Origin: Candidatus Aenigmatarchaeota archaeon
Lineage (GTDB): Archaea > Aenigmatarchaeota > Aenigmatarchaeia > GW2011-AR5
Length of the DNA: 64,000 nucleotides
Direction of reading: 5' to 3'
Assembly (NCBI GenBank): GCA_016198685.1
Contig: JACQID010000006.1
Span: 1 to 64,000 of the forward strand
Shown here: in pieces, positions 1 through 15,967 of the stretch
Layout of the letters: each line of letters begins with the position of its first letter
Position numbering within the stretch: the first letter of the stretch is position 1
The notes under the pieces: generated by a model
The model's input: only the letters and a program-made list of their open reading frames with translations
What the model was told of the DNA's origin: nothing
Databases searched by the model: none
Position numbers and translations under genes: made by a program

Positions 1-75
1 AAATAAAAGTATATATTCTATAAAACATATATAGAATCATATATGAAAAAACATATATAAAAAATGCTCATATCT
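1..75. repeat. AT-rich low-complexity TATA/CTATA tract
   Basis: Repeated ATATAT units. TATATATTCTATAAAA (10-25) is the exact reverse complement of 1952-1967. Confidence 0.55.
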
Positions 76-80
76 CTCAC

Positions 81-623
81 CTAAAATTCGTCATTTTCAT
101 CAGGCGCCCGGGCCTCCCCGCCCTGTATTTTAGGCTCTTCAGGAGCAAAACTCTCCTTATTTTCTGTCGAATCCTTGCGTATTACGCCTATAGTCATTAA
201 ATCGTCAAAATCTTTGCTTATTCGGCGTGTTTTACGTAAAAATGCCTTCATTGAGGATTCTACTTTATCCAAAAGACGATTGGTAGTATTCGCCGTCAAT
301 AAATACCCTTTTGTAAATCCATTACCCATAGGAATCTTGACAAATTCTACAAGCCCCAAAGATCGCCATTTCCTTAGCTCTTCATATGTTTGTGACTGGG
401 AAATCGACAAAATATCAGATATTTTATCCACAGTAAGCGGAATATTGTCTTTTCGGTATTTTAAAAGCTCTAATAAAAGCTTTGAGTGATTTGCACGGCT
501 TTCTTTACGTTTTAGACCCAAACGCTTAACCCATACATCTGCCATGAGTTCAGGAGTTAAACTATCCATATGATCCGGCGGAGAAATCCGCTGAAAAACC
601 ATGTCAGAAAGCTTCTTCTTCAT
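81..623 (-). CDS. winged-helix DNA-binding protein
   Basis: LTVDKISDILSISQSQTYEELRKWRSLGLVEF fits a wHTH helix2-helix3-wing pattern. Confidence 0.6.
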   Translation of the reverse strand: MKKKLSDMVFQRISPPDHMDSLTPELMADVWVKRLGLKRKESRANHSKLLLELLKYRKDNIPLTVDKISDILSISQSQTYEELRKWRSLGLVEFVKIPMGNGFTKGYLLTANTTNRLLDKVESSMKAFLRKTRRISKDFDDLMTIGVIRKDSTENKESFAPEEPKIQGGEARAPDENDEF

Positions 624-1060
624 ACTCTTATCAACTCCACTCCGGCTTCTTTCAGGAGCCGCGTGCCTAAATCGTCGGGATAATCTTCCTTAGCAACCAC
701 TTTCGTTATTCCCGCATTGATTATCATCTTGGCGCATTGCGTGCACGCCGTAAGGGTAGTATACAAAGTGGCGCCTTCAGTACGCATGCCGTGCCGTGCC
801 GCCTGGACAATTGCATTCTCCTCGGCATGGGAGCAGCTGCATTTATCTAAAGACGTGCCTGATGGCACAGTCGAAGCGCAGCGAACGCAAGATCCTTCAA
901 AGCAATTCTTGATGCCTCGCGGCGTTCCATTATAGCCCGTGGATATAATCTGCTTATCCCTAACTAAAACAGCGCCTATTTGCCTTCGTATGCAGTTAGC
1001 CCGGCCAGCAACCTCTTTTGCTATGTTCATGAAATAGGTATCCCAGTCAGGCCGTTGCAC
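620..1060 (-). CDS. dCMP deaminase (ComEB-like, Zn-dependent)
   Basis: C..RQIGAVLV, STGYNGTPRG, HAEENAI and ACTQCAKMIINAGI motifs. GTG start preceded by GGTGG. Confidence 0.92.
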   Translation of the reverse strand: MQRPDWDTYFMNIAKEVAGRANCIRRQIGAVLVRDKQIISTGYNGTPRGIKNCFEGSCVRCASTVPSGTSLDKCSCSHAEENAIVQAARHGMRTEGATLYTTLTACTQCAKMIINAGITKVVAKEDYPDDLGTRLLKEAGVELIRV

Positions 1061-1305
1061 TATAGCCCACCCTTTAATGATATATTTGTAGCCTCATGGG
1101 TCACCCATTTGCCATAAAATATAGCCTCAGAAGGCCACTTTTTTCTTGTGTTTGGCTGATTTTTTATGTTAGCGCTCAGGCCTAGCATATCACATGAAAA
1201 ATAGCTGCTTTCATTTTCTATCCGGAATAAACCGCCAAATATGCTGCTTTGCACTTCTTTCACAAATAACCTTGGTGACATACTAACCTCTTTGGTCCCG
1301 CTCAC
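1060..1305 (-). CDS. possible small hypothetical protein
   Basis: Its stop overlaps the start of the deaminase gene. No recognisable motif. Confidence 0.3.
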   Translation of the reverse strand: MSGTKEVSMSPRLFVKEVQSSIFGGLFRIENESSYFSCDMLGLSANIKNQPNTRKKWPSEAIFYGKWVTHEATNISLKGGL

Positions 1306-1453
1306 TTTTATATTTTACGGTATTAGAGAATAATTCCCGTCTTTAACCGGAGTAAGGTCATTTTTCATAAATATAGAGAAGGAAAGACTGAAAAATTTTC
1401 AGAATTAAAGCGGAATAAAATTTTAGTAAAAATAGATCAAAAATGCTCATATT

Positions 1454-1831
1454 TCATAAATCATTTTCTATAAAATATGTTGGTAATTGCTTACGTCTCA
1501 AAGAAAATCCCTTGAAATAGTTCTTGTCATCATCAGATATCCCTGCACTGAAATCCAGCCAAGGATCGCGGTAGCCGGCAATTACTCTGCCCACATCAAA
1601 AGGATATAATCCCTTATACTCCTCATGCGGCGCGTTTACGCCAAAGGATCCGTCATCATATTGCGTGATTATTATTCTACTTTTTGGAGTAGTTTTTACA
1701 GGAGATGTCATAAGATCCACAAATATGCTTTTCATTTTTATGTAGCTAATTAATTTAAAATTTGGCGATCTTTTGTTAAGCGTAAGCGGATTTTGCATGG
1801 GTGTTTTTCGGCTATTTTTATGGGGTTTCAA
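1454..1831 (-). CDS. hypothetical protein
   Basis: Longest ORF in the interval. The true start may be a downstream Met. Confidence 0.5.
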   Translation of the reverse strand: MKPHKNSRKTPMQNPLTLNKRSPNFKLISYIKMKSIFVDLMTSPVKTTPKSRIIITQYDDGSFGVNAPHEEYKGLYPFDVGRVIAGYRDPWLDFSAGISDDDKNYFKGFSLRRKQLPTYFIENDL

Positions 1832-1869
1832 GGATATTTTATTACGGCTTTTGGCCGGAATTTTTTATG

Positions 1870-2015
1870 TTAGATTTCGAGGGAGTTTTTTGTATAGTAT
1901 TTTTATATAGTTTTTATAGTATATTTTTTATAATATTATTTGTATTTTATATTTTATAGAATATATATACTGCCTGATCCCTAACATAGAATATATTTTA
2001 ACTTATAATATAGCT
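1870..2015. repeat. AT-rich TATAG-containing low-complexity tract
   Basis: TATAG at 1893, 1906, 1915, 1955 and 2009. Includes the 16-bp inverted copy of positions 10-25. Confidence 0.55.
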
Positions 2016-2086
2016 AGAGCTTTATACGAATAAATTCATGGGAATAGTAGGGAGACAAAAATTATATCAAAAATAAAAGAAATTGT

Positions 2087-2317
2087 TTATCGCTTCTTTC
2101 TTTTCTTAGGTTCAGATTCGTTCATGCAGTGCGACTGTGCCTTGTAGTATTTTGCCGTGCCCAATAATGCGAGGCCTGCGAAATACTGCAATGCCAGGAT
2201 GCCTGTGGCCATATCGAGACCTATCTCAGGCATCTTCAGTTGCTGTCCGATCCCGCTTACGAGAAGGACTAATGCAAGAGCTCCGAATACTGAATACATG
2301 ATGCAATTGGAGCACAT
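2087..2317 (-). CDS. small two-TM membrane protein
   Basis: Two hydrophobic stretches and a basic C-terminal tail. Confidence 0.6.
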   Translation of the reverse strand: MCSNCIMYSVFGALALVLLVSGIGQQLKMPEIGLDMATGILALQYFAGLALLGTAKYYKAQSHCMNESEPKKRKKR

Positions 2318-2415
2318 AGAATAAATTGAAAAGGCCGGTATATATAGTTAACCAAGCAGGTAGTATGATTTAATTCGCTATGCACAATTTTTGTAATATA
2401 CCAACTATAAGCTTT

Positions 2416-2730
2416 TTAGACCGGATCGTAACCGCCACCTGTTATGGGATTGCAACGGAGCAGGCGGAACGCGCCCAGCAGCATTCCGATAACCGGGCCC
2501 CTCTTCTTGACGGCCACTTTGGCATATTGCGAGCATGTTGGCATGAATGAGCACATCTTTTTTACGCCGAACTCTTTTTTCAACTGCGGATCTATCTGCT
2601 TTTGATAATAATTTATACTGTCAAGAATGAAACTATCTTTTCTAGGCATACTATGAACGTTGCGAGCCCAGATTACAACTGCGCGACCAAAGCCTCCCGG
2701 ACCGCAGCAACAGTCAACCTGTCCCTTCAT
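2416..2730 (-). CDS. yidD: membrane protein insertion efficiency factor YidD-like
   Basis: [11 protein letters not shown]...G...[17 protein letters not shown] matches the YidD three-Cys signature. Confidence 0.85.
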
Positions 2731-3038
2731 CTAGCTCCCCTGGGTTTAAGCTTTGAGAATTTACGAAGAACGGCTTCAAAATTATCGGCCAGCTCTTCGC
2801 CGTCCTTTGTGAGCTTTACATATTTGATTCGCCCTTCCTTGTCGAAATCAACAAGACCCATTTCTTCAAACATTTCAAGAAGCTTGACCGTGTGCGAATA
2901 CGTGCAATCGGTCTCTTTTGCAAGAACTGATACATATTTTGCATTACCCATCTTTATGCACATGAGAAGCTTAACTGGCTTCTTTCTGAGGAAGAGATAC
3001 TCGAGCTCGTTTTTAACGCTCATATAGAGTCTATGCAT
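2727..3038 (-). CDS. MarR-like winged-helix protein
   Basis: [43 protein letters not shown]. Confidence 0.75.
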
Positions 3039-3080
3039 GCGCCTGCTTAAATATGCGATATATCTATTTCGGTATATATG

Positions 3081-3560
3081 TCACTTTTCAAGGCCTCGTT
3101 TTTTCGCCAGCATTGAAAAGGAAAACGCGTATATTAAGGACCATAATATGGTCGATAACATCGAGAGCGTATAATTGTAAAGACCTGCAATCATACCAAG
3201 CCCTATGATCAGCAAGCTCCCTGATATCCAGATAACTCCGGCAAACAGAAAAGTTACTATAAGCGACTTGAGAAAAATGCCTGAGCCCGGTATTTTTTCT
3301 GCAAATAGCATGACTAGAATGGCAAAAAAGCCCCCGCGCATCGCCTCATTTATTATGGCAGGTGGCGAACTCAGGATAATGCTCCCTAATGCGTTTTGCA
3401 AAACCTCAGGATATAAGTACGCTATACTTATTATCCCGGCGAAACTCACAGCAAAGTAAGCTATGATGCCTGAAATCACACCTGTCTTCATCCATTCCCT
3501 GCCGGAATCTGCGTAACGATCCTTCATAATCATATTTAGGCTAGAGCATTTTAAATACAA
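3081..3560 (-). CDS. multi-pass membrane protein
   Basis: About four hydrophobic helices. Confidence 0.65.
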   Translation of the reverse strand: MYLKCSSLNMIMKDRYADSGREWMKTGVISGIIAYFAVSFAGIISIAYLYPEVLQNALGSIILSSPPAIINEAMRGGFFAILVMLFAEKIPGSGIFLKSLIVTFLFAGVIWISGSLLIIGLGMIAGLYNYTLSMLSTILWSLIYAFSFSMLAKKRGLEK

Positions 3561-3578
3561 TCCAAGCGTTATTGTTAT

Positions 3579-3797
3579 ATGTCCGAACTTACTCTGCAGC
3601 CGATACGCAGGCTTTTCTTCAGGACCGGGGCGAAGCGCGTTTCTGACAAGGCCGCCGAGGCGCTTATAAACAATATGGAAGAGCGAGCGCTAAGAATAGC
3701 CGAAGAAGCGTGGAATCTCGCTCGTCATGCGGGCCGAAGCACGGTCATGAAGCAGGACATCAGAATGGCGGAAAAACTCGTAAAGGAAAAGAAATAA
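3579..3797 (+). CDS. archaeal histone (HMf family)
   Basis: 72 aa. EL...PIRRL, GAKRVS..A..AL and ARHAGRSTV...DI histone-fold motifs. Confidence 0.92.
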   Translation: MSELTLQPIRRLFFRTGAKRVSDKAAEALINNMEERALRIAEEAWNLARHAGRSTVMKQDIRMAEKLVKEKK

Positions 3798-3804
3798 TCG
3801 CCTT

Positions 3805-4755
3805 CTAGTCCCTGATACCGTCTTCAGTGACGCTGAATACTGCTTCACCTTCAGGCAAATTAGGAGAATCAATCAGCCGCGCGACTCTCTTAGTCTGTTT
3901 GCTTTTTCTCAGGTACATACGGTATGTCGATGCATGACCGAGTATGTGACCTCCTATTGCAGTTGTAGGATCTCCGAAAAGCATGTCAGGCTTGGCCATG
4001 ACTTGGTTTGTCATGTATACAGCAACGTTGAATGAATCCGCAATTTTTTGCAGCGAATGGAGATGCCTGTTCAATTTCTGCTGTCTTGGCGCAAGTTCGC
4101 CCCTGCCCGTGTAATCAGAACGGAAGTGAGACATCATGGAATCAATGACAATAAGCTTCACGTTTCTTTCTTTTATGATATCACGCGCTTTTTCAACAAG
4201 CACCACTTGGTGATCTGAATTGTAAGCCTTGGCTACGAATATGTTCTTGAGAACTTCTTCGGGCTCGAGGCCCTGCGCCTTTGCAAGCTGCACAATTCTC
4301 TCAGGACGGAATGTGCTTTCCGTATCTATGAATATACAATTGCCACCAAGTCCTCCTTTTTCGACAGGCATCTGCACATTGACAGAAAGTTGGAAACCAA
4401 GCTGCGATTTTCCGGAACCGAAAGCTCCGAATCCTTCTGTTATGGCCTGAGTTTCCACTCCGCCACCTAGCAATGCATTAAGAGAATTACTGCCAGTCGT
4501 TACTTTTCCTATTTCTTTTCTTCGTTCCATCACGTCGGCAGCTGACTTGAATCCCATGTCAAGTTTGTCGCGCGCAGCTTCTATTATTTTTTCAGCAGTC
4601 GCCTGACCTATCTCGCAGGCCGTAACAATTTCTCCTGCCGATGCCGCGGCTATGCTCATGAGATCCTCATATCCCGCTTCCCTAAGTTTCTGCGCTCCCT
4701 TAGGTCCGATGCCCGGCAAATCCTCTATTGAAATCATTTCAGTCATGCGTTTCAC
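3805..4755 (-). CDS. radA: DNA repair and recombination protein RadA
   Basis: N-terminal HhH (LPGIGP), Walker [43 protein letters not shown]. No intein. Confidence 0.97.
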
Positions 4756-4759
4756 CCTT

Positions 4760-5737
4760 TTACGCCGTGCCCCGAGGCAACAGCCTGTTTATCTCTTCCT
4801 TTATGTCAACGCTCTTCACAGAATTCGTAACGAATTCAAGTCTGTCAAAGAAAGTATTACGCCTCACTTTTCCGGAGAACACGTATTCCCGGCCGAGTTC
4901 CGCTTTTTCATAGACATGCTTTAAGTCCCTCTTCATATCGAAGATTCTCTTCGCTTCGTTCTTCGTCATTCCAAGAACGAATTCCGCCTGCTCGTTAAAC
5001 AGGACGACGCGTATGCTTTCTGTGCCGTCGTCTATTATTCCTGTGAGAACTATGTTGTGTTCCGGCGAGACTTCTCCGTGCTCTTCACACTTGAAGCCGT
5101 TCGCTTCCTTCAGGCTGGCCCTGCATTGCGGGCATACCGGATAAAACATATTGGAATTGAAAAGCTGCATAAGACAGGCACGAACTTCTCTTCTATATCC
5201 TTCCTGCAGATCTTTTATCGAAGATCTTTCAATTTGAGCTGTTGGCTCTTCTGCAACGTCTATTTTTTCCGAGCTTCTCTGCAGAAGACCATATTTGCCT
5301 ATGCGAAGTTCGGCATAACCATCATATCCTTCTCTTGAAAATCCCTTGAAATGGATAACATCCCCGATCTTGGTTTGTTCAAGAACTTGCAATTCCTCAT
5401 TCCACAAACTGAGCCTTACCGAACCTGTGTGATCGGCAATAATAATGTTAACAACTTTTCCTTCTGCCTTATCGGTTTTGAATTCTTTGACAGGGAAAAT
5501 CTTTGTTATTTTCCCTACGACATCGACATTCTTCATCCCCGGCACGATGCTGCCGATGTAGAGTCGCTCTTTTTTCTTAAGAAGCTGAACGCCAAGTTCC
5601 TTGGCCACTATGTATACTGCTCCTTCTTCGGATATAAGACCCGAAAGTTCTTCTTGCTTTTCCTGAACACGGGCCTTTATTTCGCTTTCATTAAGGCCTG
5701 AATCTGCGGCAATCTTGGTTATCATTTCGCTTATCAT
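4760..5737 (-). CDS. rpa: replication protein A (OB folds + Zn finger)
   Basis: [11 protein letters not shown] and [14 protein letters not shown] motifs. CPQC...CEEH zinc finger. Confidence 0.9.
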
Positions 5738-5801
5738 GCGAGAAACTATATCGGAAAAATGTTTAAAGAAATAGAGAGCGAAAGAAAAGTGCGGAAAGTG
5801 C

Positions 5802-6056
5802 TCAGATTATTTCCTTCTCGGATATTATCACGAAGTCGCCCACGGACTTCACTGCCGAGAAAGGCACAAGCGTCCTGCTTCCTTCATCCCTTTCGAGATT
5901 GAGTTCAGAGGAGTGTCTTGTGGGCTCAACCATTACTATGCTAAGAAGTTCTCCGGATTCGGCCACGAAGTTTAAGTCGCCGACTACGCCGAATTTTCTG
6001 CCGGTTTCTTCGGAAACTATGACTTTGCCGATGAGATCTCTTCCTCTTGTAGCCAT
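5802..6056 (-). CDS. PRC-barrel protein (CdpB-like)
   Basis: LIGKVIVSEETGRKFGVVGDL...G.L..I...VPFSAVKSVGDFVII. Confidence 0.85.
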   Translation of the reverse strand: MATRGRDLIGKVIVSEETGRKFGVVGDLNFVAESGELLSIVMVEPTRHSSELNLERDEGSRTLVPFSAVKSVGDFVIISEKEII

Positions 6057-6172
6057 GTTACCACCTCGTTATATGGCTATATAATTCACTAGCAATCTTA
6101 AATACGTTTTTATCAGAAAAGCGCACTTTGATACGGTCATTAGGTCTTCTATCATAAATTTTATGTTAGTGA

Positions 6173-7336
6173 TCAGGCCTTGACTACAAGCGTCTTGAGC
6201 TTCGCTGCCAGATGGTAAACGAAAGCCCTGTCTTTTCTTGTTCTTTCTACCATCTTATCGGCCATCATCCTGATCAATATGTTGTTGACGCTCCTTACAG
6301 CGTGCTGACGGGTCTTGTATTTCTCAAGTGGCAGGCGGTTCGCTATGTCGCCTGGAGATGCGGGACCGGTAGCAAGGACTTCTATGACGTCTCTCTGCAT
6401 AGGTGTTAGGGCTTCTATTGCGCTCACAGAAATGCTCTTCTCCTCTTCCTTGCGGGCCGAGACCATATCAACCGTAATCGTAGGGCGGCCCTGGCGTGCT
6501 GCAGCATTGATAAGTTCTGTGCAAACACGTAGCACTTCCCTTGGAAATCCGCCGGTCTTCTCGTATATAGCATCTATTGCGTCTTGATCAAACGGAGCAT
6601 GCCCCTTGCCGCCGACGCTCTCTATACGCATGGTTATCATCTGCTGCATCTCGTGCTTCGTGAGAGCAAGCACTTCAATTCTTGTGACTATTCTTTTCCT
6701 TAGTGTTTCCAGTTTATCGCGTATCTTCGATTCAAAGACAGGTAAACCGGATAATATTATAGTCATGTTTTCTATCTGGTCACTAAGTACCCTAATCCAT
6801 TCAAGCATCTCCAGTTCAGCTTCATGAGCCTCGTCAAGGAAGAATATGAGATGCTTGCCCCGTAATTTCTTGTTCATGAAATCGGGTATTTGGTACGGAT
6901 TTTTTATGTTAGGTATAAAGAGCCTCAGGAACCATGGTGCGCCGTATTTGTTGTTGAAAATATCCAGTAGTTCCTGCGTATTGGCAGGCGGTTTTCCTGT
7001 ATATAGAACTTCAAAATTTTTAGGAACATTCATAGCTGACCATTTTAATAGAGTGGTTTTACCAGATCCTGTCGGGCCTGTCACCAAAGAAATATTATGC
7101 TTTTCTTCTATCGCTGAAAGAAGCGCAGCTTTCTGATCACCGTATCCAACATAGAGATCGGGTTTTATACTGAATGTAAAAGGGCTCTGAAACCAGCCAT
7201 TTTCGGTTATCCACTCTTTCACTCTTTTGGGCCAGCCTATGGAGCTATTTTTGCCCTCTAAAGAGGGGTTTTCGGAGCCTTTTTCCTGTGTAAAAGGAGC
7301 TTCGGGAACCGGTATATCTTCCTCAGGCGGGGCCAT
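6173..7336 (-). CDS. ExeA/AAA_22-like ATPase with C-terminal winged helix
   Basis: SPFTFSIKPD N-motif, Walker A GPTGSGKT, Walker B FLDEAH, R-finger LRKRI, GGFPREV. C-terminal LTPMQRDVIEVL...DIANRL...VERTRKDRAFVYHL wHTH. Confidence 0.85.
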   Translation of the reverse strand: MAPPEEDIPVPEAPFTQEKGSENPSLEGKNSSIGWPKRVKEWITENGWFQSPFTFSIKPDLYVGYGDQKAALLSAIEEKHNISLVTGPTGSGKTTLLKWSAMNVPKNFEVLYTGKPPANTQELLDIFNNKYGAPWFLRLFIPNIKNPYQIPDFMNKKLRGKHLIFFLDEAHEAELEMLEWIRVLSDQIENMTIILSGLPVFESKIRDKLETLRKRIVTRIEVLALTKHEMQQMITMRIESVGGKGHAPFDQDAIDAIYEKTGGFPREVLRVCTELINAAARQGRPTITVDMVSARKEEEKSISVSAIEALTPMQRDVIEVLATGPASPGDIANRLPLEKYKTRQHAVRSVNNILIRMMADKMVERTRKDRAFVYHLAAKLKTLVVKA

Positions 7337-7350
7337 CTATTCATATCTGC

Positions 7351-7635
7351 TTCACGGCTTAAAAAGATTTAGGTAGTGAAGTTCACGGGATCTTCACGCG
7401 ATTTTTGCTTTGTTCACGCATCTATTCACGGATTTTTTAATATTTTTCGTGAAGTTCACGTTTTTTGGCATTATGAATTCATGTGAAGATCTGTGAACTT
7501 CACGTGAAACAAGATCTTCACGAAGGTATTCACGTGAAGCCCGTGAAGGTCTTGTGAAGGGTTCGTGAAGCTTGCGTGAATAGTTGGTGAAGTATATGTG
7601 AAGAGTTGTTGAATAGTTAGTGAAGCTCAATGAAA
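7351..7635. repeat. helically phased TTCAC/GTGAA array 1
   Basis: 22 exact pentamers counted. GTGAA (one TTGAA variant) starts every 11 bp at 7543, 7554, 7565, 7576, 7587, 7598, 7609 and 7620. Confidence 0.92.
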
Positions 7636-7804
7636 GCGTATGGGATTTTATTATGATTTGTGACTTACTATTCCGGTTTTTGAGAGGAATATCATCAGTT
7701 TGTGAGCTTTTTTATGTATTTTTCTGACCTAATGGGGCCTATTGTGAGGGAAGAATATGAAACTTAAATATCTTCTCAAAAATGTGTGAGTTTGTCCAAA
7801 GACG

Positions 7805-7968
7805 TTCATATAACTTCACGTGAACTTCACGGCGTATTCACGGATCTTCACAGATGTTCACGGACTTTCACGTGAACTTCATAACATATCTATGAAGTTC
7901 ACGTGAACTTCACGAAGCCACCCGTGAATATTCACAGACACGTGAGTAAAATGTGAGTATTTTGTGAG
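7805..7968. repeat. helically phased TTCAC/GTGAA array 2
   Basis: TTCAC at 7815, 7826, 7837, 7847, 7857, 7867, 7898, 7909 and 7931. TTCACGTGAA palindromes. GTGAG at 7942, 7953 and 7964. Confidence 0.92.
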
Positions 7969-8061
7969 TTTTAGAAAACTAACATATTTTAATTTTTCTG
8001 TCTTTATGGCAAAAAACCTTATATTTAGACGATTGGAAATATTTTAGGCTATTTTTAGCCT

Positions 8062-8370
8062 TTAATTGCTCTGTGCATTGCTCAAAATCTTTAACATTTT
8101 TAGAATTTCGCCTATGCTACGACCTTCCGCTATCTTCTGAAGTACATACGGCTTTAAACGGATCACTCGAAGCATCGGACGGCTTCCACTGCCAAGGCTT
8201 GTCTCCTCCAAAAGAGGTTCCAGTATGCCACCTATGTAAGTTCCGACCGTAGTTGCAGACAATCCCGTATCTCTGGATAGCTGCCTTAGCCACAATCCGT
8301 CAGGATTTCTCGCAAGAGCAGATATTATACTAGATATCTTCTTGCCATCAAACCCTTTCTTTCTGCCCAT
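8062..8370 (-). CDS. small winged-helix DNA-binding protein
   Basis: IISALARNPDGLWLRQLSRDTGLSATTVGTYI HTH. Confidence 0.75.
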   Translation of the reverse strand: MGRKKGFDGKKISSIISALARNPDGLWLRQLSRDTGLSATTVGTYIGGILEPLLEETSLGSGSRPMLRVIRLKPYVLQKIAEGRSIGEILKMLKILSNAQSN

Positions 8371-8557
8371 GATAAAATAAATTGGACAATTGTACGTTTA
8401 AAGGTTTCATGGCCTTCAAATGGCTGGGAAATGCAGAATTTTGAACAATTCAAGGATTTTGCTATTTTATCCCTCACATACAGGTGTTGAACACGAAATC
8501 GGGGCCTAATAACGCCGTTATATCATCTATATATCTAAACCCGCGCCAACAATAGAT

Positions 8558-9049
8558 ATGCATTTTCTGGCCATAGAGGCAGCTCCCCATATAAAAGAAA
8601 AAATGATGTACATTCAAGAACGCCTCATAGAACTGCCAGGCGTTGTAGCCGTGAAAGAACCCCGCTTTATACTGGCACGTTTGAAGGAAGAAAAACATAT
8701 CCAAGAAAGGCTCAAAAAAGCTGTCGCTGATTTCTGTTCATTTAATATAGACGTGAAAGGCATAGGCGTATTCCCGCATCATCGACACGTAAAATCCGTA
8801 TGGGCAGGAGCACCGGCTCTAAAAAATCTGCAAGCCGCTATTGAGCAAGAGTTCGGCCCGCTAGCGCTGCCCGTTCATTCCGTTATAGCCGGAGTAAAGA
8901 ACGGAAAAGTTAGGGAAGATGTGCTGAAACATGTAAGACAACTTGAAAACCATAGCTTTGGTTCCATGAAGGTAGACATAATAAACATACTGGTCCGGCA
9001 TAATGCCGAAGAGCCGTGGAGAGCAGAAGGTTTCGTGAGGCTTGAGTGA
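8558..9049 (+). CDS. 2H phosphoesterase (ThpR/LigT-like), catalytic motifs degenerate
   Basis: FLAIE...IKE, F.I.VKGIGVFP...SVWAG and GSMKVD.I match ThpR. The HxT positions read PRFIL and VHSVI. Confidence 0.7.
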   Translation: MHFLAIEAAPHIKEKMMYIQERLIELPGVVAVKEPRFILARLKEEKHIQERLKKAVADFCSFNIDVKGIGVFPHHRHVKSVWAGAPALKNLQAAIEQEFGPLALPVHSVIAGVKNGKVREDVLKHVRQLENHSFGSMKVDIINILVRHNAEEPWRAEGFVRLE

Positions 9050-9168
9050 TGCGGCTTTTTGTCGCAGTCGACTTGGATGAAAAGATAAAAGAAGAACTGG
9101 CAGTTCATGACATCCCTCATGCGACGATTGCCCCTCAAGCAAACCGGATTCTAGGCTCCTTGACATAA
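9049..9168 (+). pseudogene. 39-aa ThpR-like fragment
   Basis: Read manually: MRLFVAVDLDEKIKEELAVHDIPHATIAPQANRILGSLT*. Its start overlaps the upstream stop (TGATG). Confidence 0.6.
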
Positions 9169-9345
9169 CTTCACGGTATAAGAATGCTTCATTCGGAGTC
9201 ATGCATGTGAAATCCGTGAAGCTCAAAAACTCGATTATTGGTCTGGCGGACCCGTATATTCTGGCATAGCATCCTTTGACTTGGCATAACTTCACAAAGG
9301 CTTCACAAAACCTTCACATGAATTCATTTGTTTCACGGCTGTGAA
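9165..9345. repeat. satellite TTCAC/GTGAA cluster (array 3)
   Basis: TTCAC at 9170, 9291, 9302, 9313 and 9332. GTGAA at 9207, 9216 and 9341. Confidence 0.75.
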
Positions 9346-9663
9346 TTAGCCGCTCTTACGGACGTGCCATATCACTTTTCCTGTTATTTCATCTCTCTTC
9401 ACAGGGCCGAATTGCCGGCTATCCGTGCCGATCGGGTTATCGCTAAGAACGAAATATTCGCCGTCTTTGATCAGGCCTGGCACGGTGTTTTGTCCCGGGG
9501 CCGCGGCTATGCGCTTCAGCATGCTCTGGCCGCCCTTGTTTATTACCACCGTATCCCCAACAGAAAGGGCAGCAGTTTTTGTAAGGACGACAACATAATC
9601 GCCGTCACGATAAAACGGTTCCATGCTCCTGCCCTGCACAGCAAACCTTCGCAGGAAGAACAT
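9346..9663 (-). CDS. sodX: Ni-SOD maturation protease (S26 family)
   Basis: R..V.GRSMEP...DGD.VVV (Ser), MLKRI (Lys), YFVLSDNP...DSRQFGPV. sodN lies nearby. Confidence 0.8.
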   Translation of the reverse strand: MFFLRRFAVQGRSMEPFYRDGDYVVVLTKTAALSVGDTVVINKGGQSMLKRIAAAPGQNTVPGLIKDGEYFVLSDNPIGTDSRQFGPVKRDEITGKVIWHVRKSG

Positions 9664-9666
9664 TTT

Positions 9667-10170
9667 TTACCCCTCCAAATACCTAACTATCTCTCTGCAA
9701 AAATCCGGCAAATCGGCCGGTTTTCGCGAAGTTATGAGGTTATTATCAACTACCACCGATTCATCCGTGTACGCCGCCCCTGCATTTATCACATCATCCT
9801 TTATCGCAGGCGCGCACGTGACCTTCCTGCCCTTCAGGATACCTGCAGATATCAAGACCTGAGGACCGTGGCATATGGAAGCTATCAATTTTTTTTCATC
9901 ATCAGCCGACTTGACCAGATCAAGAATTGCCTTAAGCTGCCTGAGCTTGTCAGGCGCCCAGCCACCTGGTATTATCAACACATCAAAAGTCGCGCCGAAG
10001 TCCTCAATAGTCCCGTCGGATTTTATCGGCACGCCGTGCTTTCCCGTGTACACGGCCTCGCCCAGCCCGGCAACTTTCACATCGCCCCCGGCTTCCTGAA
10101 GCCTGTAATATGGATAAAGCAGCTCACTGTCCTCGAAACTATCTGCCGCAAGAATGAGGATTTTTTTCAT
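9667..10170 (-). CDS. pfpI: PfpI/DJ-1 family protein
   Basis: FEDSEL.YPYYRL, IIPGGWAPDKLR, SICHGPQVLISAG, LITSRKPADL. Confidence 0.92.
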   Translation of the reverse strand: MKKILILAADSFEDSELLYPYYRLQEAGGDVKVAGLGEAVYTGKHGVPIKSDGTIEDFGATFDVLIIPGGWAPDKLRQLKAILDLVKSADDEKKLIASICHGPQVLISAGILKGRKVTCAPAIKDDVINAGAAYTDESVVVDNNLITSRKPADLPDFCREIVRYLEG

Positions 10171-10224
10171 ATTATATATGTACGTCGAAGTTATAAATTA
10201 GTTTCATAAAGAGAAGCCATTTAA

Positions 10225-10626
10225 TTGTCCGCCTCATATATAATACTCATGGAATTGCTAAAAATAGACAGCGTCATGTTTAGAGTAAGCAATCTTGATG
10301 AGGCTGCCAAGTTCTATCAGGAAGTTTTAGGCCTGAAAAAGGCATGGCGGGACTCTCAGAATGCCATGATGGGATTTATTTTTCCCGAAAGCGATTCAGA
10401 GATCGTCATTCACAGCAATTCTGATATACCCACTCCTGCATTCAGCTTTCTTGTGAAGGATGTAGAAAATTTTTGCAGGGATTACCGCAAAACCGGAAAT
10501 AAAATCCTGACAGAGCCCTTTGAAGTAAGGACGGGAAAGTTTGCCATAGTCTCGGATCCCGACGGCAACGCCATCCCTATAATAGATCTTAGTAAATTCG
10601 GCGGCCACCCGAGATATGACTATTAA
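10225..10626 (+). CDS. VOC/glyoxalase family protein
   Basis: VSNLDEAAKFYQEVLGL and DPDGNAI motifs. Confidence 0.85.
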   Translation: MSASYIILMELLKIDSVMFRVSNLDEAAKFYQEVLGLKKAWRDSQNAMMGFIFPESDSEIVIHSNSDIPTPAFSFLVKDVENFCRDYRKTGNKILTEPFEVRTGKFAIVSDPDGNAIPIIDLSKFGGHPRYDY

Positions 10627-10698
10627 CAACAGACGACAAAATCAACCGTATCGAATAATTCACGACTCGTAGGCAGCCCTTGTTTTTCCGGAGGCGCT

Positions 10699-11334
10699 TC
10701 ACAGCTTCGTTTCCTCGCCACTCAGGTAATTAGCAAGCGTCAAACGGTGCTGTACAGACCCGCGGTCTCTGGGGGTTTCGCCAACTGCCCTGCATAGATA
10801 AGGAAAATATTTTTGCGGGAACGTGCCATCTCTTATAGCATCCGGCCGATCGGGAAATCTATATCCTTCACGATAAACATTTTCGCCATCCCTTAAATCG
10901 TGCCCGGATCCATATAACACATTATGCTCCGATCTCATTGATAATTCAAACCCTTGTATTGCTAAATCGCGGTTCGCCCCTGTGAGTCTCTGATTATCCA
11001 CCAAACTTAGCATAACAACGCTAATCCAGTCGGGATTTTCCGTCACTAATCTATATTGCGTGTCGCCTTGTGCGGTTATAAGACCGTATTTCAATCGGCG
11101 ACCATCAACATGAGTCTTGTTGTCAGCACTAACCCACAACTGGCTCGTCGGCTCGCCACGTTTGTCAAACGCCGCATATACGGCCCACGGATGCTCTAAA
11201 CTACTAACAGTATTATTAATATCACGGGCAACTTCCCCAGAAACGTGGCTGCTTACGTTCAAAACCACATCCGGCCCGCCTATGCCATCCGGTAAAATTA
11301 TTTTATTTCTTATACCATACGACATATTCATCAT
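10699..11334 (-). CDS. orphan protein, paralog of 11331..12236
   Basis: Shares the GFEL.MR, D..G.PT and FP.....IR....YF motifs with its neighbour. Confidence 0.6.
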   Translation of the reverse strand: MMNMSYGIRNKIILPDGIGGPDVVLNVSSHVSGEVARDINNTVSSLEHPWAVYAAFDKRGEPTSQLWVSADNKTHVDGRRLKYGLITAQGDTQYRLVTENPDWISVVMLSLVDNQRLTGANRDLAIQGFELSMRSEHNVLYGSGHDLRDGENVYREGYRFPDRPDAIRDGTFPQKYFPYLCRAVGETPRDRGSVQHRLTLANYLSGEETKL

Positions 11335-12236
11335 CCTCTTTTTTGCGCAGGAGGAAGCAGTATTGCGCCGCCGCTCTGCCGCTCATAGAACGGAGATTGC
11401 CGGCCCCTGTTATCCAGTTGTTTGTTATCACGACCCGGCGAACCGAGCTCATGCCCATCCAAAGCGCCTGTCACCAATCTCACGGCATTAAAGTACCTTC
11501 CCGGCGCCCTGCGTATTGTGTTCGGATACGGGAAGGCAAACGGATTAAACTCATAACGTGGGTACGAACCGTCCATTCTCATTTGCAATTCAAAACCATC
11601 TATGATATATTTGCGTTCTCCGTCAGGCAACTCAAATTGATGTCCTTGGCTTTCTGCAAACAACTTTATAGGCACATAACCAAGCGTCTTATCTAACCAA
11701 TTTCCGGCATTAGGAATGTCTGCACTAGATGGCGATCTGTCATACGTTTTTTCAGAACCTGGCACTGCTTTCGTAATTCTATCATCCGGTGATGCATACG
11801 GTTGCTGGAGATCGGAACGATTTCTAGGACCTGACAGCGCCGTGTAATTTGGAATACTTACATTCCTGTTATAGAAACCGCGAAACCCAACATCGGGATC
11901 TAACTCTTCATGAAAAACATTCAACATTCCACCATCTCTACTACGCTGAACAGAAATTACCATAGGCACGTCGGTCGGTCTTCCAACCATATCATAACTC
12001 ATGCCCAAAGCTGCGATATAACGATTTCCGTGACCATCATTACTAATGGGCACGTTACTTCCTACATACCGTTCTATATAATCACGTGCTCCTGATGTAA
12101 GAAATTCTGTAACATCTGTTATCAGACCCGTTGTTCTAAACCCTGGCCTCAATGCAAATTTGGGTCTGTCGGTTGCACCGGGAATGATACTTCCTCGCAT
12201 GTATTGATTATCGCCTGTACCGCCTTGCAATACCAT
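11331..12236 (-). CDS. orphan protein, paralog of 10699..11334
   Basis: 4-bp overlap with the downstream gene. Shared motifs as above. Confidence 0.6.
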   Translation of the reverse strand: MVLQGGTGDNQYMRGSIIPGATDRPKFALRPGFRTTGLITDVTEFLTSGARDYIERYVGSNVPISNDGHGNRYIAALGMSYDMVGRPTDVPMVISVQRSRDGGMLNVFHEELDPDVGFRGFYNRNVSIPNYTALSGPRNRSDLQQPYASPDDRITKAVPGSEKTYDRSPSSADIPNAGNWLDKTLGYVPIKLFAESQGHQFELPDGERKYIIDGFELQMRMDGSYPRYEFNPFAFPYPNTIRRAPGRYFNAVRLVTGALDGHELGSPGRDNKQLDNRGRQSPFYERQSGGAILLPPAQKRG

Positions 12237-12272
12237 AGTCTTTTGATTGACAGAAAACTATTTAAATCTTTA

Positions 12273-12770
12273 CTAAACAGTGACAATTCCCTTCTTGGAA
12301 ACCGGATAAACCGTCTCCCGTTCCGTGGGATAAGGCGCCTTGAACCTTGCCGTGCCCATGCCTTTGGCTTCCCAGAATATTTCCGCGACCTTGTTCACGG
12401 ATTCCAGAAGCTCGTCTGCCGCCTTTACGTCGGCTTCCTGCCGCGCTTTTGAAGCGAGTTTCAGGGTCTTCCAAACCAGATCGTGCAGGTTGGGATATTT
12501 CTGGATGTGCTCGGGCTTGAAATAGTCACCCCACAACACGCGAATCTCGTGCTTGCAAATCTCGGCGTGCTGCTCCTTCACCGCGGTGAAACGGGCGACC
12601 TTGTGCGCATCGTCCTTGTTCTCGTTTATCAGCGTGACCATGCGTATGACCGTGTGCGCGGCCATCTGCGCAATATGAGGATCATATATGCCACAAGGAA
12701 TGTCGCAGTGCGCGCTTGCCTTCGCAGCAGGCACTATTCTATCAAGTATTTTCATGATCGCGTATTTCAT
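12273..12770 (-). CDS. sodN: nickel superoxide dismutase precursor
   Basis: Ni-hook HCDIPCGIYDP after a 20-aa leader. KEQHAE.CK.E..VLWGDYFKPEH and VAEIFWE match SodN. Confidence 0.95.
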   Translation of the reverse strand: MKYAIMKILDRIVPAAKASAHCDIPCGIYDPHIAQMAAHTVIRMVTLINENKDDAHKVARFTAVKEQHAEICKHEIRVLWGDYFKPEHIQKYPNLHDLVWKTLKLASKARQEADVKAADELLESVNKVAEIFWEAKGMGTARFKAPYPTERETVYPVSKKGIVTV

Positions 12771-12830
12771 ATAACCACCTGATTATTTTTCTCTTGAAGT
12801 CTTTTATTTCTATCTTGACTATTATGGAAG

Positions 12831-13772
12831 ATGCCTAAAGCAGATAGAGGTTTCTTTCTGGGTGCGGATTGCGGCGCCACCAAGGCTACAGTAGTCATTA
12901 TAGATAGCAAAGGCGAGATAGTTTCTCTTGCCGAAGGTCCCGGAACAACCCATGAGACGCTCGAAAGCAAAGAATTCTGGGCAGGCATGGTAAAGGTAAT
13001 ATCGCAGGCCCTGCATGGATGCCGCGGGAAGATAAAATATGCCTGCTTTGGCATGGCTGGAATTGACACTGCAAACGATATGCGAGCGGCCAAACACTGG
13101 ATGAGCAAATCCGGGATGGAAGCTCTGCTCAAGTGCCCCATAGATATATTCAATGATATACAGATTGTTCTACCCGCAATAGGCGTAACTGAGGGCGTAG
13201 TTGCGATAGCCGGGACAGGCTCGGCATTTTATGGCGTCAGGAACGGCAAAAACGCAAAAGCAGGCGGACTTGATTGTGTGCTTACAGATGAAGGAAGCGC
13301 CTATGATATTGGGGTTACAGCTCTCCGTGCGGCAGTACGCTCATGGGATGGTCGCGGCCATAAAACGATGCTTGAAAGAATGGTTTTTGCCAAGACTGGG
13401 GCAAGCAACGGGTTTGAGCTCAAAGACAAGATGCATGGAAGTTCCAAATCCGTCATTGCATCGTTTGCCAAGCTTGTTTCCGAAGCTGAAGCTAAAGGAG
13501 ACAACGTTGCGAAAAAAATACTGGATTCCGCCGGCACAGAGTGCGTCATGGGAATAAATGCTGTCATAAAGAGGCTTAATTTCAGCGGCAGCTTCGACAT
13601 TGCCCTGACGGGTAAGCTTTTCTCAAAAGGAGTGCTTAATGAAAGAGTGAGGGCAAATCTTGACCAGAATCATCCTCAAGTCAAAATACGCATCGTAAAA
13701 GAGCCTGCAATAGGTGCGGCAAAGCTAGCCATGGATCTTTCGAAACAGAATAAAGCAAGGAAAAAACCCTAA
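12831..13772 (+). CDS. BadF/NagK-like sugar kinase
   Basis: LGADCGATKA, FGMAGID, IFNDI, IAGTGS, GG....LTDEGSAYDIG. Confidence 0.85.
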   Translation: MPKADRGFFLGADCGATKATVVIIDSKGEIVSLAEGPGTTHETLESKEFWAGMVKVISQALHGCRGKIKYACFGMAGIDTANDMRAAKHWMSKSGMEALLKCPIDIFNDIQIVLPAIGVTEGVVAIAGTGSAFYGVRNGKNAKAGGLDCVLTDEGSAYDIGVTALRAAVRSWDGRGHKTMLERMVFAKTGASNGFELKDKMHGSSKSVIASFAKLVSEAEAKGDNVAKKILDSAGTECVMGINAVIKRLNFSGSFDIALTGKLFSKGVLNERVRANLDQNHPQVKIRIVKEPAIGAAKLAMDLSKQNKARKKP

Positions 13773-13792
13773 CAAACCGAAAACCGTATATA

Positions 13793-15967
13793 GTGGACGG
13801 GTTAAGGATGTATATGTCTTATCATAAAGTATTGATTGCAGTCGCGCTTATTGCCCTTGTAGTAATTGCAGCAGCTCCAAAATCGTCTGATGCTAATGGT
13901 CTTAAGAAATTCTCCTCGATTGAAGAATTAACAAGCTTCCTTGAAGAAAGGGGAACTGATTCCACAATGCTTTATGACAGGGCTGCTGCTGAAAGCATTG
14001 CTCCTGCATCTCAGGATGCCAAAACTTCAGCTGCAGATTATTCGTCAACTAATGTGCAAGTACAAGACGTTGATGAGGCCGACATAGTCAAGAACGATGG
14101 CAAGTATATTTACTCGGTTTCCGGAACCAGGCTTTTCATAACAGAAGCATACCCTCCTGAAGATATGAAATTGGTTTCCACGATAGAATTCGCCAACGCA
14201 TCGGCGCAGGAAATTTATGTCATCGGTGACAGGCTCGTAGTCTTCGGCAACAGCTACGAGCCGCACCCATTTCCTGCGATGGATATTGACACGAAAATCG
14301 GCATCATAGCGCCTTTGTACCAGAAGTCGTTCATCAATGTCTATGACATATCCGACCGGGCGAATCCCGTCCTCAAAAGAAACCACGTATTGGATGGATA
14401 CTACGCGAAGTCCAGAATGACCGACGGCTACGTTTATGCAATAATCAACGTGCCGGCAAACGGCAAAGAGGTTCCCGTCTTCAGCCCGCAGCAGGAAGCG
14501 TTCCCTGAAATATATTACTTTGATGTGCCGGATTATTCGTACACATACACGAACATAATTTCCTTCGACCCCCAAGCCGATGAGGGCATGGATAATCAGG
14601 TTTATCTTACAGGCTATTCCACTGCCCTATATGTTTCACAAGATAACATCTATATCGGTTATCAAAAACAGCTTGAGTCGAACTATGTACTGAAGCGTAC
14701 AGTAAATGAAATAATCATACCGTCAGTCGATAGCGAAACGGGTACAAAGGTCAGGCAAATAATGGATTCTGATATGCCTGACTATGAAAAGGAATATACA
14801 GTTCAGAACGCGATTGAAAACTGGACTAATTCGCTCACTCAAGAAGAGCAGAAAAATCTAGCGGAAAAGGCCATGGCAATTTACCGCGATGCATTTATGG
14901 AGTCTCAAAAAACCGTAATTCACAGAATATCGATAGACAATGGCAATATTCAATATGCGGCCAACGGCGAAGTTCCCGGCATGCCGCTCAATCAGTTTTC
15001 AATGGACGAGCATGACGGCTACTTCAGGATAGCCACGACGACAAACAACTTCTGGGGAGGCTGGGGATTCGGGGGCATAGCAGTCAGATCTACCGAAGTT
15101 GTTTCAAGCACAGGCGGTAGCTCAGGCATTGCATCTACAGAAACCGCAAGTTCGCCCGTCATGAAAACTACTGAAGATACCATCGAAAGCGGCGTAGAGG
15201 AGCCTGTCCAAGAACTTCTGCCAGATCGATTGCCTCGAGACAGCAGCAAGAATAATGTGTACGTGCTTGATATGGGCATGAACGTAGTCGGAAAGATCGA
15301 AGGTCTTGCCGAGGGCGAAACCATTCATTCTGCAAGGTTCATGGGAGACCGCGCTTATCTTGTGACATTCAGGCAGACCGATCCGCTCTTTGCAATCGAC
15401 CTCAGCGAGCCTGCGAACCCAAAAGTTCTCGGTGAATTGAAGGTGCCCGGAGTCTCTCAGTATCTCCATCCTTACGGCGAGAATTATCTCATAGGTATTG
15501 GACATGACGCCACAGATGAAGGAAGGCTCATGGGTCTGAAGCTCTCGCTATTTGACATTTCAGATATGAGCAATCCGAAGGAAGTGTCCACGCAAATACT
15601 AGGAGACAAAGGATCATTCTCCTATGCTACATACGACCACAAGGCATTCCTGTTCAGCGCCGGCAAGGGTCTTCTTGTCATTCCGGTCTACCTCACGGAA
15701 AGTGATTACAAATACGTGTGGCAGGGTGCGTATGTCTTCGCTGTAAGCGAAGCAGGGTTTGAACTCAAAGGCAAGATAGCACACCAGTATAACGGCACCG
15801 AATACGATTATTATCAATCCGAGGATTCAGTCAACCGTGCCTTATACATGGACAATGCATTGTATACGCTCTCCCAGAGCGAGATAAAGGCCACGGATTT
15901 AACAACAATGGAAGAAATCAACAGCCTGAAACTACCCGTCGATCGGCCAGTTTATTACATCATGTAA
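13793..15967 (+). CDS. secreted beta-propeller domain protein
   Basis: Signal anchor, YSSTNVQVQDVDEADIVKNDGKYIY, NQFSMDEHDGYFRIATT, RFMGDRAYLVTFRQTDPLF. Confidence 0.85.
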   Translation: MDGLRMYMSYHKVLIAVALIALVVIAAAPKSSDANGLKKFSSIEELTSFLEERGTDSTMLYDRAAAESIAPASQDAKTSAADYSSTNVQVQDVDEADIVKNDGKYIYSVSGTRLFITEAYPPEDMKLVSTIEFANASAQEIYVIGDRLVVFGNSYEPHPFPAMDIDTKIGIIAPLYQKSFINVYDISDRANPVLKRNHVLDGYYAKSRMTDGYVYAIINVPANGKEVPVFSPQQEAFPEIYYFDVPDYSYTYTNIISFDPQADEGMDNQVYLTGYSTALYVSQDNIYIGYQKQLESNYVLKRTVNEIIIPSVDSETGTKVRQIMDSDMPDYEKEYTVQNAIENWTNSLTQEEQKNLAEKAMAIYRDAFMESQKTVIHRISIDNGNIQYAANGEVPGMPLNQFSMDEHDGYFRIATTTNNFWGGWGFGGIAVRSTEVVSSTGGSSGIASTETASSPVMKTTEDTIESGVEEPVQELLPDRLPRDSSKNNVYVLDMGMNVVGKIEGLAEGETIHSARFMGDRAYLVTFRQTDPLFAIDLSEPANPKVLGELKVPGVSQYLHPYGENYLIGIGHDATDEGRLMGLKLSLFDISDMSNPKEVSTQILGDKGSFSYATYDHKAFLFSAGKGLLVIPVYLTESDYKYVWQGAYVFAVSEAGFELKGKIAHQYNGTEYDYYQSEDSVNRALYMDNALYTLSQSEIKATDLTTMEEINSLKLPVDRPVYYIM

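Follow-up and report, generated by a model that had tools for sequence, protein, structure and literature searches.

At the putative origin of Methanothermobacter, multiple 13-bp mini origin recognition boxes (mini-ORBs) are bound cooperatively by Cdc6-1 (Capaldi and Berger 2004, as cited in PMC1904270); going by the account in the citing paper, this array is the nearest published system to the locus analysed here. The locus lies in the window, i.e. the whole stretch of DNA that was analysed, which is the start of contig C1 (its first 64 kb) in the genome of an uncultured archaeon (G000; 935 kb, 8 contigs, 93.7% complete). The source names of close homologues point to Aenigmarchaeota, a DPANN lineage. 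The locus includes a gene encoding an AAA+ ATPase with a C-terminal winged helix, an adjoining array of short, helically phased repeats and, as a conserved partner on the far side of the array, a gene encoding a 102-aa winged helix-turn-helix (wHTH) protein. No published description of this ATPase-array module was found in the literature.

Features shared with Orc1/Cdc6 and its mini-ORBs are an AAA+ domain followed by a lid and a C-terminal winged helix, a gene located beside many short repeats of the presumed binding site, opposed repeat orientations, a palindromic core that recalls the mini-ORB dyad and likely cooperative binding, which is only predicted here. The module differs by 5-bp half-sites at a strict one-turn spacing and without G-strings, by its lack of sequence membership in the family and by the coexistence of a genuine orc1/ORB locus nearby.

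In bacterial oriC, low-affinity DnaA boxes are closely spaced in two arrays of opposite orientation that reportedly guide DnaA oligomers, a result attributed to Rozgaja et al. in 2011. The module resembles this system in its AAA+ domain linked to a C-terminal DNA-binding domain, its spacing of ~11 bp, its two opposed arrays and its putative autoregulation. It differs in having no Bac_DnaA homology (Bac_DnaA and Bac_DnaA_C are absent from the Pfam matches at E<=0.01), a winged helix instead of DnaA domain IV, many more sites and no identified unwinding element.

Two sets of five 11-bp iterons flank the promoter in the parC/ParR system of plasmid R1, and a wHTH protein of ~100 aa is found in tubC/TubR. 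Like such type II and III plasmid centromeres, the module has phased iterons of one-turn geometry at an operon promoter (the sites flank a TATA-like box), a small wHTH gene alongside (encoding the 102-aa protein), one cluster per replicon and binding that would be coupled to autoregulation. Unlike them, it encodes an AAA+ NTPase with its own DNA-binding domain, which is not actin-, tubulin- or ParA-like, occupies a chromosomal core locus and has another gene order.

The likeness to ParB-parS includes an origin-proximal location, an SMC gene in the genome and the palindrome TTCACGTGAA, whose 10 bp are the same as those at the centre of the 16-bp parS consensus TGTTTCACGTGAAACA. Its flanks have no GTTT..AAAC match and most sites are isolated half-sites; given how common a CACGTG core is, the identity may be coincidental. 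Despite this identical core, membership was rejected because no ParB_N was found in G000 (93.7% complete). HTH_ParB gave a sub-threshold match only, on another contig, and a single ParA/MinD-like gene is located on contig C3.

MuB and TnsC polymerise on DNA, which they bind irrespective of its sequence, and lack a C-terminal winged helix. MuB/TnsC/TniB and ExeA/GspA are the best sequence kin of the module ATPase (AAA_22, TIGR03015, N-terminal PF..P..F.GY motif) and give the best low root-mean-square deviation (rmsd) match of its core (Z 17.1-17.3). The module ATPase differs from them by its C-terminal winged helix and by the lack of transposase, secretion or PEP-CTERM genes nearby.

The phased array

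The main features are given below; the repeat arrays have no strand. Read along the minus strand, the 102-aa gene (8062-8370) is followed by a 725-bp gap (7337-8061), the 387-aa gene (6173-7336) and the 84-aa gene (5802-6056), then by the RPA, RadA and histone genes and a gene encoding another small wHTH protein.

5802-6056, minus strand: PRC-barrel protein, 84 aa (Pfam PRC).
6173-7336, minus strand: AAA+ ATPase, 387 aa, with an AAA_22/ExeA-type core, a lid and a C-terminal winged helix (Pfam AAA_22, AlphaFold2 model).
7340-7640: array 1, TTCAY run (7340-7533) converging on an RTGAA run (7449-7634), 10-11 bp spacing.
7641-7809: spacer, ~170 bp, 67% AT.
7805-7935: array 2, mainly TTCAY, 10-11 bp spacing, three TTCACGTGAA palindromes.
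7942-7968: three GTGAG sites starting at 7942, 7953 and 7964 (11-bp spacing).
8062-8370, minus strand: winged-helix protein, 102 aa, predicted MarR/ArsR/Lrs14-like fold.
9165-9345: satellite mini-array, ~11 pentamers, with TTCAC at 9291, 9302 and 9313 in 11-bp phase.

The 725-bp gap contains 43 TTCAY/RTGAA pentamers, 35 of which are strict TTCAC/GTGAA, i.e. 59 pentamers per kb versus 6.7 per kb for the window (about ninefold). TTCACG is found 56 times in the window, including 26 matches within 7351-7928, and 0/100 shuffles reach 56. The best period is 10.3-10.5 bp. Three sub-arrays are distinguished, a TTCAY run from 7340, a converging RTGAA run to 7634 and a mainly TTCAY run at 7805-7935, and each is phased, at 10.4-10.5 bp, when compared with random placement (p<=2e-4). 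An earlier note on this DNA, made from its letters, had described a repeat lattice beside the ATPase gene. This lattice is real and phased; it is not uniform: a 170-bp spacer separates array 1 from array 2, which is followed by an AT-rich tail without sites. The ATPase and 102-aa wHTH genes do lie on opposite sides of it, at 6173-7336(-) and 8062-8370(-).

The overlap of the two runs of array 1 holds palindromic TTCACGTGAA and GTGAAnTTCAC sites; TTCACGTGAA is found at 7499, 7529, 7815, 7867 and 7898. Array 1 also overlaps the promoter region of the ATPase gene, in which a TATA-like box (TTTTTAAG) precedes the ATG by ~25-35 nt. Apart from the satellite, which sits between LigT-like and S26-type peptidase genes 1.2 kb past the main array, the array is the sole such cluster in the 935-kb genome. 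Fourteen of the 19 phased TTCAY triplets of G000 are found at 7473-7857 and 9291-9302. In the genome-wide site search, strong sites elsewhere were at chance level, i.e. there is no regulon.

Comparisons cover 301 genomes of the phylum, 41 close relatives, 20 order-level and 20 class-level loci, 21 pooled loci and four genomes of the same genus. In the 21 pooled loci, same-strand distances peak at 11, 21-22, 31-32, 42, 52 and 62-63 bp, which corresponds to a period of 10.45 bp. In the same-genus genomes, 66% of the bases are invariant in the pentamer cores versus 35% in between; judged from base conservation, this is the pattern of protein-binding sites.

A second motif is present in the same gap. 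In the spacer, GTGAC/GTGAG occurs in a single orientation and at intervals of exactly 42 bp, equal to four helical turns (7660, 7702, 7744 and 7786). This set and that at 7942-7964 have the same orientation and are invariant in the four same-genus genomes. Over 21 order-level loci, GTGAG is found 76 times versus 15 for CTCAC, and whole helical turns account for 87% of neighbour spacings. At class level, the relation between presence of the wHTH gene and TGTGAG count was suggestive by tblastn and was blurred once hidden Markov models found weaker wHTH homologues in more families. The TGTGAG sites are probably bound by the 102-aa wHTH protein and are kept as a lead. The spacer also carries, at 7669-7691, the inverted repeat TATTCCGG-(9 nt)-GGAATA (TATTCC..GGAATA), which is nearly invariant in the same-genus genomes and matches neither the RTGAA nor the GTGAG motif.

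A non-coding RNA gene inside the array was considered and rejected, Rfam and tRNA scans (5500-9600 and 1-15000) having returned only chance microRNA-like hairpins that arise from the palindromes.

The ATPase and the small winged-helix protein

By sequence the ATPase is AAA_22/ExeA-like; its fold is like that of Orc1/Cdc6. It matches AAA_22 (PF13401) with 47 bits (cut-off 27), a match that does not separate it from Orc1, since the canonical Orc1 of the genome passes too. TIGR03015 (PEP-CTERM/ExeA ATPase) gives 5e-23 and 81.8 bits, under the cut-off of 324.5, and RPA, RadA, histone, PRC and wHTH genes replace the secretion or exopolysaccharide context of an ExeA equivalog. PDB sequence searches with the ATPase and its profile gave P-loop-level matches only.

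Walker A (GPTGSGKT) and Walker B (DEAHE) motifs, the arginine of GGFPRE and R215 are invariant in an alignment of 32 homologues. The AlphaFold2 model (predicted local distance difference test score, pLDDT, 84.8) has a C-terminal winged helix (H312-359 plus a wing at 363-376) whose recognition helix is YK(S/T)RQHAVRSVNNIL. This is the most conserved stretch of the ATPase outside the P-loop and is nearly invariant across the class. The description 'ExeA-like ATPase ending in a wHTH' given in the earlier note holds, through the sub-cut-off TIGR03015 match for its first part and the modelled winged helix for its second. So does the statement that the protein is not of ParA, ParM or TubZ type: it is an AAA+ protein by Pfam and by fold, and the Pfam scan gave no ParM or TubZ family match.

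The best Foldseek match of the model is A. pernix ORC2 (1.8e-14). Compared over its full length by VIA, the model gives Z 19.6 with ORC1-DNA 2v1u (323 residues aligned), 19.5 with 2qby and 19.4 with 1w5t; the rmsd of this superposition on Orc1/Cdc6 is ~10 Å because the domains are arranged differently. For the AAA+ core alone, the scores are Z 17.3 for MuB (rmsd 3.8) and Z 17.1 for TnsC, with an rmsd of ~4 Å. The predicted fold has the three parts of the Orc1/Cdc6 architecture (AAA+ base, lid and C-terminal winged helix). Neither Cdc6_C (PF09079) nor Cdc6_lid (PF22703) was matched in a Pfam scan of the ATPase, and TIGR02928 reached 16.7 bits for a cut-off of 181.3. Alignment by hhalign with the genome's own Orc1, which passes all Orc1/Cdc6 sequence tests, gave a probability of 1.6% and covered the P-loop only. 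The Orc1/Cdc6-like architecture noted earlier is supported by fold (Z 19.6); by sequence, the ATPase is not an Orc1/Cdc6 (Cdc6_C, Cdc6_lid, TIGR02928 and hhalign).

The model of the 102-aa protein (pLDDT 84.6) is a winged helix of MarR/ArsR/Lrs14 type preceded by a basic N-terminal tail, MGRKKGFD; a PDB search with its profile gave only weak IclR/MarR HTH matches. A predicted complex of the ATPase and this protein had a score of 0.00, which is counted neither for nor against binding.

Conservation, origin proximity and possible roles

The ATPase is encoded by a single-copy gene in 37 of the 41 close relatives and is present in 205 of the 301 genomes of the phylum. It is nearly missing from two families (f18, 1/58; f20, 0/17). 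The order HTH27, histone, RPA, RadA, PRC, ATPase, array, wHTH, LigT-like is kept in 20/20 order-level loci. YRTGAA sites are present in the gap of each of them, with a predominance of ATGAA in AT-rich genomes. At class level, an array is found upstream of the ATPase gene in ~17/20 loci and a PRC gene nearby in 20/20. The synteny survey proposed in the earlier note thus recovered ATPase, array and wHTH together at order level and ATPase with array in most class-level loci. Orthologous loci devoid of arrays, which that note had named as one part of a refutation, are not found at order level and are the exception at class level.

When the genomes were searched for TTCAY in three phased copies, 200/301 matched (reversed control, ~0). 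Among the matches listed, at least 27 genomes have phased triplets upstream of the ATPase start and no more than 1.2 kb from it. The ATPase-less families f18 and f20 have sporadic single triplet matches only. Neither the recognition helix nor the GTGAA core varies across the class. Thin arrays are found in some families (f16, f17, f22 and f33): the gap directly upstream of the ATPase gene is 100-170 bp long, and the phased sites in it, 5-8 in number, surround a TATA-like box. Conservation ties the sites to the ATPase gene; such a link does not prove which protein binds them. Judged from these occurrences, the module is chromosomal and has descended vertically in most of the class Aenigmatarchaeia.

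Genome G277, a single contig, contains two full ATPase-PRC-RadA-RPA blocks (C1:457-467 kb and 251-261 kb; L098 and L099). One is f19-like, with a big array and the wHTH gene, and the other f16-like, with a thin array; they could result from a duplication or from a chimeric assembly.

The single canonical Orc1/Cdc6 (with Cdc6_C and Cdc6_lid) is encoded at C1:65581-66849, just past the window and 58 kb from the array. Three ORB-like boxes that contain G-strings (TTACAGGAAATAAGGGGGT, TTCCATAGGAAATGAAGGGGT and TTCATAAGAAACGGGGGT) are found in the AT-rich 400 bp upstream of orc1 (C1:65185-65580), and a Metallophos_2 gene is located downstream of orc1. The region C1:65185-65580 is likely the true oriC. 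The search for orc1/cdc6 and ORB sites elsewhere that the earlier note had called for was thus productive. At the array, adjacent RTGAA pentamers lack G-strings; the GGGGT-bearing ORB-like boxes are found beside canonical orc1 instead. In ~45 genomes of 15 families (genomes of 0.6-1.2 Mb), 6-58 kb separate the ATPase gene from orc1. The two genes are on different contigs in f17 and f22 and 295 kb apart in G308.

Four f14 genomes (G046:C8, G050:C11, G104:C19 and G109:C11) have a further phased TTCAY triplet ~4 kb from orc1, besides matches ~20 kb off; satellite arrays may populate the orc1-ATPase interval in this family. In f18 and f20, a search for an extra canonical Orc1 in place of the ATPase gave only weak Cdc6_C matches (E 1e-4 to 1e-10, open reading frames of ~350-367 aa), which count neither for nor against such a replacement; judged from these matches, the replication initiators of both families appear strongly diverged.

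The phased array is proposed, with about an even chance of being right, to seed one nucleoprotein platform that has a role in the origin region, i.e. in marking, organising or segregating it or in modulating initiation. The helically phased array of (Y)RTGAA half-sites would act in cis, and the factor acting on it in trans would most likely be the AAA+ ATPase encoded next to it. The winged helix of the ATPase would read one RTGAA per helical turn, so that all protomers would be on a single face of the DNA. Head-to-tail AAA+ contacts, dependent on ATP (the Walker A/B motifs are intact and arginines are invariant), would lead to cooperative and directional filling of each run. The opposed runs would then carry two oppositely oriented oligomers meeting at the palindromic sites, and the product would be a single large nucleoprotein complex per chromosome. 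As this complex would cover the ATPase promoter, it would also be autoregulatory. The 102-aa wHTH protein would be a second component, probably on the separately phased TGTGAG sites. A role in the origin region is favoured over that of a second origin because the module is located at the above distances from the single orc1/ORB origin in most families and no such sites are found elsewhere in the genome.

Several observations weigh against this platform. Array size varies from ~8 to ~50 sites between families, a range compatible with a structural platform and equally with an operator that can expand. In G308 (family f17; G308:C1:329093-330490), the ATPase and PRC genes are kept and a mere 45 bp separate the ATPase start from the abutting gene; neither an adjacent array nor a wHTH102 homologue was found there (8.5 kb of the contig are masked as N), so that the ATPase may be able to work without a large array. 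Only co-occurrence and conservation link RTGAA to the ATPase and TGTGAG to the wHTH protein; the two motifs might be assigned the other way round, or canonical Orc1 might be the protein that binds. Origin proximity may reflect a slowly rearranging synteny block, distances being nearly constant within families. GC skew (window, G000 contigs and the complete 742-kb G308 contig) shows no clean switch at the array or at orc1 and is uninformative.

A more specific proposal sees in the array a centromere or organising centre of an archaeal chromosome, where an ATPase polymer on ~40 phased sites near oriC marks the origin region, condenses it (e.g. by SMC loading) or segregates it, possibly with coupling to division through the adjacent PRC-barrel protein. 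This is rather unlikely. If true, an initiator-type ATPase would here do work analogous to that of ParB-parS, at sites whose palindromic core happens to equal the parS core.

An autoregulatory operator only, the ATPase and/or the wHTH protein being transcription factors and the repeats tuning expression of the ATPase (perhaps also of PRC), is likewise doubtful, though it has a real chance. The sites overlap the promoter in every lineage, down to the minimal form of 5-8 sites around a TATA-like box; the absence of a regulon, the evolutionary plasticity of array size and the generic regulator fold of the 102-aa wHTH protein also fit. However, 30-50 phased sites over 600 bp, with invariant cores and order-wide conservation, are far beyond the needs of repression. 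A single-copy core gene in 0.5-1.2-Mb genomes would be purposeless if merely self-regulating, and intact ATPase motifs imply work beyond binding. A second origin fired by a non-Orc initiator is less probable still; the AAA+-wHTH protein would assemble along the phased sites, like DnaA at oriC or Cdc6-1 at arrays of mini-ORBs, melt DNA nearby and recruit MCM. A second origin would account for the Orc1/Cdc6-like architecture (archaeal ORC1/ORC2/Cdc6 are the best structural matches), for the adjacency of an initiator-type gene and its sites, as at archaeal origins, for the spacer flanked by opposed runs and for the nearby RPA, RadA and histone genes. The palindrome TTCACGTGAA moreover resembles the Pyrococcus mini-ORB TTCCAGTGGAACT (PMC1904270). 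The origin-like role suggested in the earlier note is weakened by the canonical orc1 with its G-string ORB boxes, 58 kb away here and 6-58 kb away in the ~45 relatives. Two origins so near give no replication advantage and make little sense on a genome of ~1 Mb, and the spacer is only 67% AT, with no clear unwinding element; a second origin is therefore ranked below the origin-proximal platform. The ATPase also fails the Orc1/Cdc6 sequence tests, and in several families the entire intergenic region is 100-170 bp, with sites flanking just a TATA-like box.

The pentamers could alternatively be degenerate mini-ORB half-sites for canonical Orc1/Cdc6, forming a titration or auxiliary site beside which the ATPase would be incidental. 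Models for such a site are the dp1 ORB cluster of Thermococcales and datA of E. coli. The palindrome is similar to the mini-ORB dyad, the module is near orc1 in most families and the extra triplets of f14 are ~4 kb from orc1. This explanation is nevertheless very unlikely: the arrays track the ATPase gene, abutting its start codon in dozens of genomes, whereas their distance to orc1 varies tenfold; the genuine ORBs by orc1 are longer, bear G-strings and have a different sequence; and f17 and f22 retain ATPase-linked sites away from orc1. An integrated replication-partition cassette of plasmid or viral origin is highly improbable. An NTPase, a small DNA-binding protein and iterons do recall plasmid par/rep loci, and AAA_22 ATPases are found in transposons (TniB, TnsC, MuB), but the module is single-copy, has a class-wide chromosomal context (RadA, RPA, histone) and tracks host families. 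Neither an integrase gene, a tRNA gene nor a compositional break is present at the module (window; tRNA scan of 1-15000).

The module bears on chromosome organisation and segregation in archaea without ParB or SegAB, and on the roles of non-canonical AAA+-winged-helix proteins. It combines a single defined protein with a single defined site at a strict spacing of one turn, and is conserved throughout a class of reduced genomes. If it serves as a centromere, an organiser or a replication-control site, the initiator-type build of the ATPase has found a new use; even as an operator alone, the array would be unusual in its size and regularity.

Neighbouring genes and the PRC-barrel protein

The genes that follow the PRC gene on the other side of the ATPase are given below.

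2727-5737, mixed strands: conserved neighbouring block, found in most orthologous loci.
2727-3038, minus strand: HTH_27 wHTH protein, 103 aa.
3579-3797, plus strand: histone (Pfam).
3805-4755, minus strand: RadA (Pfam Rad51, 1.6e-92).
4760-5737, minus strand: RPA (Pfam Rep_fac-A_C plus OB).

The PRC, RPA, RadA and histone genes named in the earlier note were all identified by Pfam. Judged from gene order, they are a conserved synteny block and at most candidate partners of the module. The 84-aa protein passes PRC (PF05239) with 24.9 bits (cut-off 21.2); YlmC/YmxH (TIGR02888) gives 29.9, under its cut-off. The PRC gene follows or neighbours the ATPase gene in 40/40 orthologous loci examined, with 57-100% identity. 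Recruitment of PRC proteins to the FtsZ/SepF division ring is published for haloarchaeal CdpB1-3 only, and according to the same authors not every stand-alone PRC protein has a part in division. The HTH_27/HVO_A0114-like gene (2727-3038) ends the conserved block; its product has 63-95% identity across the order, exceeding the conservation of the array-side wHTH protein.

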